Both the position numbers and the translations under genes were made by a program. From assembly GCF_006345805.1 (NCBI RefSeq), contig NW_021835267.1, positions 1-57,851 of the forward strand: a stretch of 57,851 nt of DNA, written 5' to 3'. Shown piece after piece: positions 17,969 to 44,319 of this stretch (positions are counted from its first letter, which is position 1; each line of letters begins with the position of its first letter). Origin of the DNA: Octopus sinensis (lineage: Eukaryota). Below the pieces are notes generated by a model. It searched no databases, had not been told where the DNA came from, and worked only from the letters and a program-made list of their open reading frames with translations.

Positions 17969-18053
<85 letters not shown>

Positions 18054-18082
18054 GTTCTGTGTATGGATGTATCATATGTATG

Positions 18083-18125
<43 letters not shown>

Positions 18126-21100
18126 TGTGTACTGCCGTACACAATTTAAAATAGTCAGCTACACAGATCACAAATTTGTGACGTGTACGCTCGACTTAGA
18201 TAAGACAGATAGACAGGTTCCCGGTTACTGGAAACTGAACACGTCGCTCTTAGCGCGACAGGTTTACAGGAACCGGATTAGCGAGTTAATTAAGAGGGCG
18301 CTGACGGGAGCCGTCGTTAACAACCGCTTGTGGTACGCCCTGAAAATGGCAATAAAATCGGAATCAGTTAGGTTTAGCAAGGAATTAGCGATAGATCGAA
18401 ATGGAGTAGAGGGAGACCTGGTTAAGAAACTAAAGAGGCACTTACCACTGGCAGCGCAACCAACGTGCTGGCTGTGAGGATGGCCTCGACCAACACCTCA
18501 ACGCCAAGCACGAAGGTTGCGTCGTCAAGAGCTAAAATGCGTGCCTTAAGGAACGAAGCGATCGAAGCTGCGCGAGATTGCCCGGGTAGCGGAGGCGCAG
18601 CGTGGCAACGAGCCACCTTCGGTCTCTAATAGATCAACAGGGATGCAGTTTACTCGAACCCGAAAGGATGTGTGAGGCCTTCACAGCACTTTGCTCGACT
18701 GTTTGGTGCGAGTGGTGGGTCGGAACGAGGGTATGGATTTCAGTGCCTAGCTGACCGACCTGCCGCGGCTCTCGGCAAGAGAAGCGGAGTGTTGTGAAAG
18801 TCCCATCCACAGCCGCTACGTGCGGGATGCGATGGCGGGCTGCGCGAGGGATAAGTCGCTGGATTGAATGGTTTACCTTACGAGCTGTATTGTCAAATGC
18901 CAGACTTGTTTGGCGACCTCTTGGCATCAGTCTACTGCAACTGGAGAATCCCCGGTTTCGTGAGCCGAGGTGCAGTGACGTTGCTGAAGAAAGACCCAAA
19001 CAAGGGGAATTTTATAGATAATTTCAGGCCCATCACTCTGCTCAACACAGATTTGAAAATTTTGGCCAAAGTAATAGCCGAGAGGTTGGCGCTTGTCATT
19101 GGTAAACTGGTCGACAGGGCGCAAACATGAGCCGTGCCGGGCAGAACCATACATGACAACCTCCATCTGATGCGCTACATTGTGGACAGGGTAGTTAAGG
19201 ATCCTGGCATGGGTGGGGCGCTGATCAATTTGGACAGTCTAAAGCCTTCGATAGGGTCGACCATCGGTACTTGGCGGCCGTCCTCAGGGCGGCTGGCTTC
19301 GGTCCCGTCTTCCGGGGTTTGATCGCTGCCTTGTATAGCGGCATCCGATCGGTGATTCGGGTGAACGGTCATCTGTCGAAACCGTTTGACATCATGCGTT
19401 CGGTCCGTCAGGGGTGTCCCCTGTCGGCGCTTCTGTATGTATTGACTCTCGAGCCGCTACTGCGGAAGCTGGCGACACTGAGGGGCATCCCACAGGAACT
19501 GGGTTGCGGGACGAGCGTGTCGGCATATGCGGACGATGTCACCGTCATAGTGTCGAGCGACAAACACATCAAGATGATAGGCGAGACATTAAGAAAATAC
19601 GAAACGGTGACGGGAGCGAAGATTAACCCGGAAAAGTCAGTGGGTTTGCTACTCGGCACCTGGAGAAGCAAGCCCATGTCGTCCGACTGCGGCTCAGTAG
19701 TGGACGCTGGACGGACGGACCGGTTAAATTGCTCGGGGTCTGGTTCAGTCCGCACCTCCAAATGGATAAGAACTGGGACGAGATCAAGGGTAGAGTGGTC
19801 GCTCTCAGCCAAACATGGGCCGAGAGAAAGCTGTCTCTAGAAGGCCGGGCGGAGGTGGCGAACGCGTACATCGCATCCGTCATCGATTACCGCCTGACCG
19901 TCGTACCTTGTCCCGACGCCACCATCACCAAACTGGAACGCATACTCTTACGCTTCCTGTGGAAGGGTGGCGTTCCGATGGTGAGGAAGTCCATTTGCTG
20001 TCAACATCCGTTGAATGGAGGACTGGGCATGCCGTGGTTGATGATGCGCAGGCATGCGCTGAGACTGCGACATCTCTGGAACTTCATCGACGACGGTGAA
20101 CAGGTGTGGGCGCGCCTTCCCGCAGCTCGTCTCACTGACCGAACTGCAAATGTGGATCAAGAAGAGACCGAAACTGGGCGATTGGCACCGAGAGTGTCGC
20201 CAAGCTCTACAGCAGCTCTGCCGACCGGGGTCAAACTTGTGCAACTTACAAAAGACTAAAGCGTTATATAGAGGACTAGTGGAGGGGAGGTCCGACGACA
20301 CACTCGGGGCAAACCTGGGCGTCGACGAGAAATTCCTAACCCGCCTGTTCAGGACGACGTTCGGGCCGGGGCCTATGGATAACTTCCAGAAATCCCTGGC
20401 TTGGCAGTGCTATCGAGACGCACTACCTGTTCGAGAGAAGAGCTACAGGCACGGTTCGAAAACCATCACGGACCGACCTGCCCGAGATGCGGTCAGAGCG
20501 ACGAAACCGTTCTGCACGCACTCGTGCAGTGTCCAGATATTTCAGAGCTGTGGACCTTCGTCGAACAGCTGTTGTCACGTGTAGGTGGGCCCGCCTATCG
20601 GCCGAGTCTATCGTTAATATTGTTCCACCACCTTCCTTTAAACGGGAAGGGAAACGGTTTTCGTTACGCTGATGGCTATGGCGAAAGAATGTGTGTGGGG
20701 ACGCGTTTGAAAGGACTGCAAACAAAAACCTTCCTCTCTGGTCTGTCTCTCGTCAACTTTTTCAAGTACCATGAAAAGGAGGATGAGAATAGAGAGGAAG
20801 GCTTTGTCGAACGAATGTTTTAATAAAAAGTGGGTAAAAGTGGCAAAAATGGTCAGTATGAAAGACGACACTATTTTAAGCGTAAATCTGTAACCAAAAG
20901 AGACAACGAGAGGTAAGGTGACTTACTCATGTGTTCATTTTCGAACTGTCTGAGGTTACCTTGGTCTTTTTTGTAGGTTTTTCTTTCCAAGGCTACACCT
21001 AAACTGTGAACCTTATATATATATATATTGCTTTTTTATACACCACACAACCCACAGATCCATATTGATCAAAGGTTTTTTTTGTGCTCCACCCATCCCA

Positions 21101-40465: not shown

Positions 40466-41673
40466 TATACCAATACACACATATTTATAAGTCATATATA
40501 TTCACACAAATATATAAAACATACACAAAGACATCCAAACGTAAATACACACAGACACACATCATCCATGGCAGTATCATTTTCTCTGCAAAGAGCTTAC
40601 CTCACACACGAGTATTTTTATCATCTCTACTTAGCCACTTTCAATGCCTCGTTCAATCCTCCTTGACTCAGTTACTCAATCACTCACTCCACTTGTTTTT
40701 CCTTTCACCATATTTTCTTTCCTTTCTTTATATATTGCCATTCTGCGCGATACTTCTAAGCTATCTTACAACGAAAGCCATATTTTGAAATACTGCAATT
40801 ATTTCCCATTTTTCCTTCGGTATTTTATATATATATATTTTTTGATATTTCTCTCGGCCATAATCCGACTGGATATTGTTATCAATGCAAACCAGATACT
40901 TCATATCTATCGCCTCATCACTCGCATGGAGATAATTATAAAGGTAGACGCTATAAGTGTATATAGAGAATATAACGCAGGAGAAAAAAAATGAAAGTAA
41001 AATGAACAACAATGTGATGAATGAAAAGGAGAGAGAAAGCTTTCGTGCTTTGGTTTAATTCAATTGATATGGAATGTATAAATTATATCGCTGCAGCTGA
41101 TAAAATATGTAATTCACTTGGCGGCAACAGGCTATTTTCTTAAATCCAAACCAATAATCAGATTGGTAGCTCCTTCATGGAGTTGGCTTCTTAGCTGTAA
41201 GTGATTATATAATTTCGTGTACACACACACACACTTATATATATGCACATAATGTTGGTATACATAGGTATATATTTACATATGCGTATATTATATATAG
41301 TACATAATAAATAAATATATTATATATATATGTAGAATGTATCATCTCTGTTTCTCTATGTATATGTACGCACACACACATACACACACACATGCAAAAA
41401 TGCTAGTTCTAAAATCTGCGCATATATGTGTGTGTGTGTGTGTCTGTGTGTGTGTGTGTGTGTGTATGCATGTATGTATATGCATACATGTATAGGTGTA
41501 GGCACGGCTGTGTTGTAAAAAGCTTCCTTCCCAACCACATGGTTCCAGGTTCAGTTTCAGAATGTGACACTTTGACCAAGTTTCTTGTTCTATACAGTTC
41601 TCTATTTAAGAGATGAGGAATTATTTACATTATTTACATTTGACGGATTTTTGTCCTCATCTTGTTTGTTGTT

Positions 41674-41719
41674 AACACAACGTTTCGGCTGATATACCCT
41701 CCAGCCTTCATCAGGTGTC
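41674..41719 (-). ncRNA. Minimal type-I hammerhead ribozyme (Penelope-like-element type)
   Basis: Minus strand: GACAC-CUGAUGA-A-GGCUG-gaggguauau-CAGCC-GAAAC-GUU-GUGUU; stem I GACAC/GUGUU, perfect 5-bp stem II, loopless palindromic stem III (ACGU), GUU triplet. Confidence 0.78.
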
Positions 41720-41766
41720 TTGGGGAAATTTCGAACATGGGTTCTCATTCCAAAGGTATTTTTCGA

Positions 41767-41840
<74 letters not shown>

Positions 41841-41843
<3 letters not shown>

Positions 41844-41914
41844 TCACTGCCTGGAATCGAATTCAGAAACTTGGGGTTAGTGGCCCGCGATCTTAACCAC
41901 TACGCCATGTGCCC
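41841..41914 (-). promoter_or_regulatory. tRNA-like internal Pol III promoter head
   Basis: A-box TGGCGTAGTGG (41897-41907) and B-box-like ATTCGATTCC (41853-41862, first G mutated) at tRNA-like spacing. Confidence 0.7.
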
Positions 41915-42159
41915 GTGGGCATATGGCGGAGGGTATATCAGCCAAAACGTGTTAACAACAAACAAAATGCGGACCAATATCCGTCAAATGTAAATAATAT
42001 CTTCTTCTATATCTTTGTGTCAACCAATTCCCTATGAGTGTATGTGATAGACGGAAACTGAAAGAAGCCCATGATTGTATATGTATACGCGCGCGTATTT
42101 ATAAAATAGATGGCGGAGAATTAGAAATTACCATACCCTTATAAATATATAGAAACCTA

Positions 42160-42372
42160 AGGCGGCGTGGTGACAGAATCGTTATCGCACCGGACAAAAT
42201 GCTTAGCGGTAATTCATCCGGCTTTACTTTCTTAGTTCAAAAGCCCCTGAAGTTTACTTCAGCTTTCCTCCTTTCGGGGTCGATAGAAATAATACCATTT
42301 GAGCACTGGGGTCGCTGTAATCGACTTACTCCTCTCCAGAATTTGCTGGCCTTGTGCCACATTTAGAAACTA
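42160..42372 (+). mobile_element. SINE family B, diverged
   Basis: GGCGGCG...AGAATCGTTA...ATGCTTAGCGGTA and CCTTTCGGGGTCGATA. Confidence 0.8.
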
Positions 42373-43247: not shown

Positions 43248-43666
43248 GGTTTGCAAGTTTCTTGACGTCAGTTCGTGTGTTTAAATAAATTTTTTGTATC
43301 TTGGGAAGGTCATTACGCTAATAATAATAGCAACACACTCATAGATTCAATTCCACTTCTTTATTGCTAGTCACTTGTTTAAATACCTAACCAACTAATC
43401 TAATTGATCGTTTGTTAAATGCGTTGATTAAACAATCAATCGGTTAGAAAATTATTAATTTTAAATCTCACAACGTGAGATATTCAGCAACAATACTTTG
43501 GAGTAAAGATTGTTTGCCAACATAACATGGCAGCCCTGGTTTAGGACGAATGTTGCTGTAATTTAGCCCCAGGAGACATTGTCTCCAGCTGGCTATACTA
43601 TGTGATCTGAGTCCTTATACTTTCGTACAAGGGAATCTAGCATCCCCACTCAACTCAAAACAATAT

Positions 43667-43709
43667 ATGTGTATCGCAATTTCTGGGTTATTTCTCTTCA
43701 TCAGCACTG
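43667..43709 (-). ncRNA. Hammerhead motif, left arm (core intact, stems partly decayed)
   Basis: Minus strand: GUG-CUGAUGA-AGAGAAAUAACCCA-GAAAU-UGCG-AUA-CAC. Confidence 0.6.
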
Positions 43710-43747
43710 AATAATTGTTTACCTAGCAGTGGCGAGGCCAAATTATT

Positions 43748-43790
43748 CTGTGCTGGTGGAGGGAAATGACCCGGAAATCGCGATACACAG
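43748..43790 (+). ncRNA. Hammerhead motif, right arm (stems intact, core mutated)
   Basis: CUGUG-CUGGUGG-A-GGG-aaauga-CCC-G-GAAAU-CGCG-AUA-CACAG; stem I CUGUG/CACAG, palindromic stem III AUCGCGAU, AUA triplet. Confidence 0.6.
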
Positions 43791-44319
43791 ATATTGTTTT
43801 GAGCTGAGTGGGGGTGCTAGATACCCTTGTTGGAAAATATAAGGACACAGCTGGTGTTGTCTAGCCAGCTGGAGATTGTGTCTCCTGGGGCTAAATTATA
43901 GCAACATTCGTCCTAAACCAGGACTGCCATGTTATGTTGCCAGATAATCTTTACTACAATCAATCGGTTTTTCAGTGATTTTAATGATTCCTCTGGCTCC
44001 AGAGTGTGTCCGATAACTGGTCTTATACCTCTGTTTGTATGGATGCTTGCACGCATGGTTGCTTAGAAGACGAGGTAAGTGAGAGTAGACGAACCATACT
44101 TGCACGTGCATACGAGCATGTGTGCGTGCGTGTGTGGCTGTATGCGTTTGGTCTCAACTCCGATGGATGAGGGGTATAGTTGTTTACCTGGGTAAAGGGA
44201 GTCAAGAACAGGGTAGGTGTGTGAGTATTTGCGTGCGCGCGCGTCTATGTCTGAGTGTGTGCATGTGTATATACATACATATATTTTCACACAGATGAAC
44301 ACATACACACAACACTGGG

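Follow-up and report, generated by a model that had tools for sequence, protein, structure and literature searches.

We studied an insertion in a 57,851-nt stretch of Octopus sinensis DNA (NCBI RefSeq assembly GCF_006345805.1, contig NW_021835267.1, positions 1 to 57,851 of the forward strand; the whole stretch is called the window here). The insertion, together with the older repeat that it interrupts, occupies positions 41485-42087. As a whole, it is best explained as a short head-to-head insertion of the pseudo-long terminal repeat (pLTR) of an autonomous Penelope-like element (PLE), whose tRNA-derived head is likely to be an internal promoter for RNA polymerase III (Pol III); we give this reading a probability of roughly 0.6. 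An initial annotation had instead described a separate non-autonomous short interspersed nuclear element (SINE) that captured a PLE pLTR and processes its own RNA. The features named there (the head, the (AAT)n tract, the hammerhead ribozyme, the inverted arm, the target site duplication (TSD) and the older SINE) are all present, and are laid out as follows.

41485-41594, plus strand: 5′ part of the older tRNA-type SINE that hosts the insertion; it matches ten or more copies in the window and resumes in the right flank.
41583-41594, plus strand: left copy of the TSD, 11 of 12 positions identical to 42000-42011.
41595-41625, minus strand: PLE 'tail' of about 30 nt, on one arm only; 3′ ends fall into two classes, and the outer RT (reverse transcriptase) start site would lie here.
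41595-41748, minus strand: first ~50 codons of the PLE open reading frame (ORF), with the ATG at 41748 and one stop near the end in the window copy.
41674-41719, minus strand: minimal type-I hammerhead within the first codons of the PLE ORF, predicted to cut after 41679.
41769-41837, minus strand: (AAT)23, an internal microsatellite.
41839-41914, minus strand: tRNA-derived head, a predicted Pol III promoter; the A box is intact and the B box has one substitution in the window copy.
41905-41927, no strand assigned: head-to-head junction, a palindrome whose 2-nt spacer (41915-41916) was templated by the pLTR.
41917-41999, plus strand: second arm, tail-less; start of the head, an internal deletion, then the 3′ half of the hammerhead.
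42000-42011, plus strand: right copy of the TSD, 11 of 12 positions identical to the left copy.
42000-42087, plus strand: 3′ part of the older host SINE, by sequence match to window copies.

On the minus strand, the head runs from 41914 to 41839 with its A box at 41907-41897 and its B box at 41863-41853, and the complete hammerhead (41719-41674) has CUGAUGA at 41714-41708 and GAAAC ending at 41682. As annotated, no Pol III terminator separates the two: a run of four T residues (T4) is absent from 41595-41920. The claimed 12-bp TSD is likewise present, and the two flanks, when joined, restore one older SINE that is also found intact elsewhere in the window, in agreement with the earlier view that the insertion moved as one unit and split that SINE. 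The left arm has an intact ribozyme and a damaged B box. The inverted right arm contains ~11-12 nt of head and then the ribozyme's 3′ half, 74 nt at 89% identity, in which the core GAAA is mutated and 3 nt are deleted at the cut site. The (AAT)23 tract is probably the tail of a captured tRNA-derived insert.

That the window unit is the pLTR of an autonomous Penelope-type element with a tRNA-derived head is close to certain, because the head follows the end of the element's ORF, the tail enters the start of that ORF and the ATG stands just before the hammerhead. A search of the source genome with the 3′ half of the unit gave 40 scored matches (92-100% identity), one of which (L010) continues upstream into a reading frame. 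The element ORF contains an RVT_1 domain (E=1.2e-9); 8 of 13 matches are to proteins 52-68% identical to it, and identity to PLE-type proteins is 49-68% overall. A natural 391-aa frame (L344) is 49% identical to the distant PLE protein P0005, in which the peptide encoded by the ribozyme core is also conserved. The head begins 29 nt after the ORF stop in 28 of 28 new ORF-end loci, for which the query included 25 nt of the head, and an unbiased RT-anchored set gave the same answer: all 11 distinct copies that reach the ORF end run on into the head. At the other side the tail runs into the ORF start in 240 matches. One locus (L239) is a true tandem pLTR, with ORF end, head, hammerhead, tail and ORF start in succession, and three others (L250, L251 and L324) start with the head and continue on into the ORF. 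The order of the element is thus ORF stop, 29 nt, tRNA head, (AAT)n, ATG, hammerhead, tail and ORF. These data support the PLE link proposed in the initial annotation, and also its view that a PLE RT and endonuclease mobilised the unit rather than a long interspersed nuclear element (LINE); they place the head in the autonomous element's own pLTR and not in a separate SINE. The GIY-YIG region weighs on the other side: the element has no Pfam match there and the homolog P0005 matches GIY-YIG at E=0.23 only, with a GIY-YIG/CCHH-like motif, recognised by eye, at the ORF C-terminus. Domain order and the absence of the linker zinc finger seen at loci L340-L343 suggest assignment to the Penelope/Poseidon type. 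Those four loci (G000:C10, C19 and C5) represent other PLE families, which we take to be Neptune-like; they have open frames of 829-1,009 aa and a Cys-rich linker before the GIY-YIG-like domain, and neither an A/B box pair nor a hammerhead was found near them.

The family is large, with at least 10,060 exact genome matches to one 20-mer, so the unit is far from single-copy. Because the arms differ from the majority state by ~5%, the family is old and probably inactive. Both a tandem pLTR (L239) and inverted truncated copies, as known for PLEs, occur in it, the latter as 105 head-to-head pairs among 285 de-duplicated arms. The 3′ ends of these arms form two classes ~30 nt apart, and the pairs comprise 74 with one tailed and one tail-less arm, 5 with both arms tail-less, 1 with both tailed and 25 with an unclassified end. 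A flank repeat of at least 10 nt, allowing one mismatch, borders 58 of the 74 tailed/tail-less pairs, and TSD length in the family is ~10-13 nt; the repeat lengths were taken without a shuffled control and are inflated by AT-rich flanks. For anole Poseidon, two internal RT start sites and cleavage of both target strands are described in the available text (PMC11167929), and the octopus tail matches this arrangement.

We counted 342 exact symmetric head-to-head junctions and 398 read-through junctions. Haplotype markers are concordant within pairs (at site 61, for example, 45 pairs are TT, 10 AA and 6 mixed), and private substitutions common to both arms of a pair (12/559 versus 5.4 in shuffled data, maximum 22) are not informative. 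Our best reading is that paired arms are two cDNAs from one source and not a fold-back copy, because the haplotype markers agree within pairs but the cut-site deletion described below does not; the second arm, for which the initial annotation had proposed a fold-back origin, looks like a separately primed cDNA. At symmetric junctions such as L122-L136 the 2-nt spacer reads AC in 6, AT in 3 and GT in 1 before the tailed arm, and GT in 8, AT in 4 and AC in 3 before the tail-less arm. This bias, from small numbers with pairs counted twice, hints that the tailed cDNA supplies the junction. Two loci (L241 and L242; G000:C3) have an identical junction from ORF nucleotide ~240 to head position -6, and similar ORF-to-head joins occur at L240, L243, L244 and L248, suggesting that RT jumps from the 5′ end of one RNA to the 3′ part of another; L241 and L242 may form a small non-autonomous branch.

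The head aligns without gaps to a genomic tRNA-Arg(TCG) over its first 60 nt, scoring 53.5, whereas the best of 500 shuffles reached 29.5; this isotype is a candidate parent. In the family majority state, for which column counts were read by eye, both the A and the B box match their consensus perfectly at normal spacing, whereas the T, anticodon and acceptor stems are disrupted; the window B box departs from this majority by a G>A change at head position 53. The call of a tRNA-derived head is qualified by ARAGORN, which called no tRNA on the unit, and by Rfam, which gave no tRNA match on it. The head looks family-specific in comparison with other PLEs: A/B box pairs occur at 0 of 53 distant metagenome PLE loci (6 with a hammerhead, many without a pLTR) and at 0 of 4 Neptune-like PLE loci of the source genome. 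One family copy (L023) adjoins one of three clustered tRNA-Arg(TCG) genes, and four loci (L095, L105, L111 and L114) have head and (AAT)n with no hammerhead half behind; such loci may have lost it by later deletion, or may represent the head as a free, simple SINE.

Copies stop at the head far more often than elsewhere. Among the first 100 listed head-core matches, scored by eye, 68 stop at the head edge and 32 read through into the ORF end; a script applied to 30 fetched head-core loci placed 22 at the head start and 8 as read-through. Background truncation upstream is 0.34% per nt (28 loci), which predicts ~3-4% per 10-nt window. Exact matches across the genome number 4,938 at head position +30, 3,649 at +3 (restricted by a filter on the first letter), 858 at -29 and 742 at -140. 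Once motif survival is allowed for, these become ~13,800, 11,900, 1,750 and 2,160, a ~6-fold drop, and the two estimates of the share stopping at the head edge differ (68% versus ~85%). Asymmetric 5′ ends, that is those without palindrome pairing, spread from -8 to +3. Because the cloverleaf has decayed but both the A and the B box are intact, we consider it probable that Pol III starts at -6 to +1 of the head, and the Pol III promoter of the initial annotation is to this extent likely, as judged from the sequence.

The same anatomy could also arise without Pol III, if a long Pol II or read-through RNA were stopped or cut at the head start and the head were a passive old insertion. The stop might then reflect a hairpin, the annealing of two cDNAs by their palindromes, or a cleavage of RNase P type. 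In RNA that reads through, a 9-bp bulged hairpin (-11.6 kcal/mol) covers the start of the head and may by itself produce stops; some half of the head-to-head junctions are symmetric and palindromic (the 342 noted above), and 32 of 100 arms read through. In the available text on the D. virilis Penelope, the pLTR promoter is compared with initiator (Inr)/downstream promoter element (DPE)-type LINE promoters (PMC2377424). Set against this, 15 of the 22 scripted head-start junctions are asymmetric and only 7 symmetric; 92 of 116 non-ORF-linked arms start at +1 to +4, in the hairpin loop and 5′ arm and not at the 3′ foot of the stem; templated bases from -1 to -6 are often retained, unlike the product of a cut at +1; and the boxes have stayed intact while the stems decayed. 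We regard an account without Pol III as unlikely. Further evidence also counts against a Pol III start. RNA reads were drawn from three raw runs under another organism label and one contig set; the three runs, which are unstranded, show equal strands, mostly pass-through reads and no defined ends, and depth is at most ~18 per strand on the ORF start versus ~1,900 on the hammerhead half. Uncapped Pol III RNA is hard to reconcile with translation of the ORF, so that, with 32 of 100 arms reading through, a Pol II route must coexist. Depletion of T4 was considered as a sign of Pol III read-through of the whole element and was rejected: no T4 run is shared in 155 aligned ORF pieces, yet this scarcity is not significant against Markov shuffles, synonymous shuffles or 15 distant PLE relatives.

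The hammerhead has a CUGANGA/GAAA core, an NUH triplet, stems I and II and a palindromic stem III, as expected for the minimal type I. A descriptor scan found it as the only hammerhead in the 57.9-kb window and found none in 60 of 60 Markov-1 resampled windows. Because stem III is loopless (palindromic AACGUU), the motif is predicted to be of the minimal, dimer type and not a self-sufficient monomer. It is fully intact in 62 of 210 arms, and the sole polymorphic core position is the free N7. Three results are unfavourable to a functional ribozyme. Rfam gave no hammerhead match on the unit; the core is no better conserved than its flanks across copies (3.4% versus 3.9% substitutions), a finding that the initial annotation had named in advance as damaging; and the stems show no covariation, with at most one compensatory double change per pair. 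The missing core conservation and covariation weigh little, because copies that decay neutrally from few sources are expected to show neither.

A different trace of ribozyme activity may be preserved at the cut site. Among 230 arms that span the predicted cut, 38 have a 3-nt deletion, 5 a 5-nt deletion and 11 other deletions, and 176 are intact; exact matches genome-wide give 1,509 deleted versus 8,074 intact copies (15.7%). At 106 comparable microhomology sites in the ORF, deletions number only 10 in 3,695 (0.27%), a ~60-fold lower rate. None of five haplotype markers is linked to the deletion (p 0.24-0.79), which within pairs is usually found in one arm only (16 discordant versus 2 concordant; among symmetric pairs, 6 of 14 discordant). 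The 5′ ends near the cut are weakly clustered, with 7 of 13 falling within 7 of the 31 nt around it (by eye; p=0.014), and at L196 (G000:C1:34865312-34865361) one arm, joined to the other's head start, begins precisely at the predicted cut. We think it probable that the deletion is a scar of hammerhead cleavage in living cells.

Rather unlikely, by our estimate, is that the 3-nt deletion is no cleavage scar and reflects DNA slippage, RT skipping a folded uncut junction (which could yield the same deletion) or minor deleted sources. The GT context is of low complexity, and the share of deleted copies rises somewhat with divergence (9/73, 17/73 and 15/74 by thirds, or 12% to ~20-23%; p=0.10), so part of the deletions may be post-insertion slippage. 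The adjoining perfect AAC tandem is deleted in 9 of 246 arms, often together with the cut-site deletion, and the two concordant pairs also fit this account. It has difficulty with the excess over the control sites and over a reverse-strand look-alike motif (1/63 and 1/29), with the presence of the deletion in 12% of the youngest third, with its independence of haplotype, and with the sizes of 3 and 5, which are those expected from microhomology at the cut. Several other observations are adverse or neutral to a cleavage scar: ~5-6% of RNA-seq reads carry the deletion, but these reads are pass-through genomic copies, and for anole Poseidon the available text reports that uncut RNA is the dominant template, that no RNA reads ended at the cut and that the ribozyme is dispensable in vitro (PMC11167929).

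The preferred reading, a short head-to-head insertion of the PLE pLTR, can be set out as a series of steps. Pol III would start at about -6 to +1 of the head in the upstream pLTR and read into the ORF start. The PLE protein would nick both target strands ~10-13 nt apart, and two cDNAs would be primed at two internal sites ~30 nt apart, so that one arm has the tail and the other lacks it. On reaching the 5′ end of the RNA, the two cDNAs would run off it and be joined, either by the self-complementary start of the head or by short microhomology. In about one arm in six the hammerhead would already have cut the template RNA; RT would then copy the 3′ cleavage product, cross the nick by a 2-nt GT microhomology, in which the two terminal bases of the copy pair with the GU preceding the cut on the 5′ product, and lose three bases. 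The ~236-nt 5′ cleavage product predicted in the initial annotation cannot be the main template, since copies continue for 55-85 nt beyond the cut and end at two fixed 3′ sites. On this view the short copies would not propagate themselves as a SINE does but would be dead-end by-products. The compound statement that a PLE with a tRNA-derived Pol III promoter makes its own SINE-like family of more than 10,000 arms, and that its hammerhead cut the template in vivo and left a dated 3-base scar in at least 1,500 copies, we put forward tentatively, as slightly less than an even chance.

The model of the initial annotation, in which an independent non-autonomous tRNA-SINE has source copies of its own, a borrowed PLE pLTR and hammerhead self-processing, now appears quite improbable. 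It gains something from the abundance of head-start arms, ~2- to 6-fold commoner than ORF-linked arms, from the unusual ORF-to-head junction that L241 and L242 have in common, and from head position 56, where T occurs in 13 of 48 versus 5 of 98 arms of the two classes (p=0.0003). That position is a CpG site, however, and provides the only strong difference in ~250 columns, while mean divergence is equal (5.5% in 55 ORF-linked versus 5.4% in 101 head-start arms); short and ORF-linked arms have the same haplotypes and age, and the head is part of the autonomous pLTR. As for what defines a SINE, the A/B-box tRNA-derived head is there; a lineage separate from the autonomous partner is not, nor is a simple-repeat or LINE-like 3′ end, (AAT)n being internal and the 3′ ends being two fixed PLE sites. 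The template of anole Poseidon must include ORF RNA beyond the RT start sites, according to the available text (PMC11167929). By analogy, short copies, which stop at the tail, would lack the downstream ORF RNA that the protein needs and would be unable to re-transpose, if that rule holds here. The short head-start unit is thus likely to be SINE-like at the transcription step, judging by its promoter boxes, yet we do not class it as a SINE, because no separate lineage was found for it and because its short copies would be without ORF RNA under the Poseidon rule.

Several known systems share parts of this design; the comparisons hold for the available portions of the sources. Anolis carolinensis Poseidon and other Penelope/Poseidon-clade PLEs resemble the octopus element in an ORF with RT and a GIY-YIG-type domain at the C-terminus, which is putative in octopus, and in tandem pLTRs (PMC11167929; PMC4209133; PMC8557442), and likewise in an inverted 5′-truncated arm, a 30-nt tail at one end and a minimal hammerhead overlapping the ORF start; a tail and an inverted copy are described for PLE insertions (PMC8557442). 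An A/B-box head in the pLTR, a 5′-end hot spot and frequent cut-site deletion set the octopus element apart from what those portions describe. Schistosome SM-alpha and Sj-alpha also have a Pol III-type promoter followed by a type-I hammerhead (PMC6765202, PMC8490949) but are described as SINE-like tandem repeats with no ORF-bearing partner, whereas the octopus arms are dispersed, head-to-head and contiguous with a PLE ORF. The TRIMp3 elements Helenus, Ajax and Cassandra have a small-RNA-derived Pol III promoter in the terminal repeat, probably from a SINE insertion; they are non-autonomous LTR elements with a primer-binding site (PBS), a polypurine tract (PPT), two direct LTRs and 4-5 bp TSDs, in contrast to an autonomous PLE with inverted arms, ~10-13 bp TSDs and a ribozyme (PMC10886601). 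Animal non-LTR retrozymes are short hammerhead units tied to PLE pLTRs, for which PLE enzymes have been proposed (bioRxiv 10.64898/2026.07.22.740005; PMC7229834). They are defined as head-to-tail arrays with at least two consecutive intact hammerheads, whereas the window copy is head-to-head with one intact motif, and the words 'tRNA' and 'promoter' do not occur in the available part of the preprint (bioRxiv 10.64898/2026.07.22.740005).

Each component therefore has a precedent in PLE hammerheads, SM-alpha, TRIMp3 or retrozymes, while for their combination in an autonomous PLE and for the scar we found none in the literature searched: it showed neither a scar at the cut site nor a PLE whose pLTR is tRNA-derived, with Repbase, Dfam, SINEBase and paper supplements lying outside the search. 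Repeat databases may already list the short unit as a SINE; tRNA-derived octopus SINEs were reportedly described by Ohshima and Okada in 1994, under family names said to be OK, OR1 and OR2. In the available texts on PLEs, cutting by their hammerheads in vivo and the origin of inverted, tailed insertions are open questions (PMC4209133, PMC8557442, PMC11167929). The octopus family offers thousands of natural read-outs on both, namely an RNA 5′ end that is defined, pairs of arms derived from one source and scarred independently, and a deletion placed precisely at the cut. If our reading is true, it would amount to a fossil record both of ribozyme activity in PLEs and of integration by two cDNAs, and the same scar can be sought in any PLE family. 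It would also show how a retroelement other than a LINE can give rise to SINE-like repeats, and would caution that fragments of PLE pLTRs may be among the repeats annotated as tRNA-SINEs.

Elsewhere in the window, the SINE families represented at 42156-42372 and at 41485-42087 are abundant, with ten or more copies each, and one of the two presumably resembles a Deu/Nin-domain SINE. An inverted repeat at 43498-43959, with 219-nt arms that are 86% complementary and a 24-nt spacer, has no BLAST relation to the PLE unit and could be another fold-back insertion or a miniature inverted-repeat transposable element (MITE). A decayed LINE at 18049-20823, which we take to be L1/Tx1-like, retains endonuclease- and RT-like fragments.
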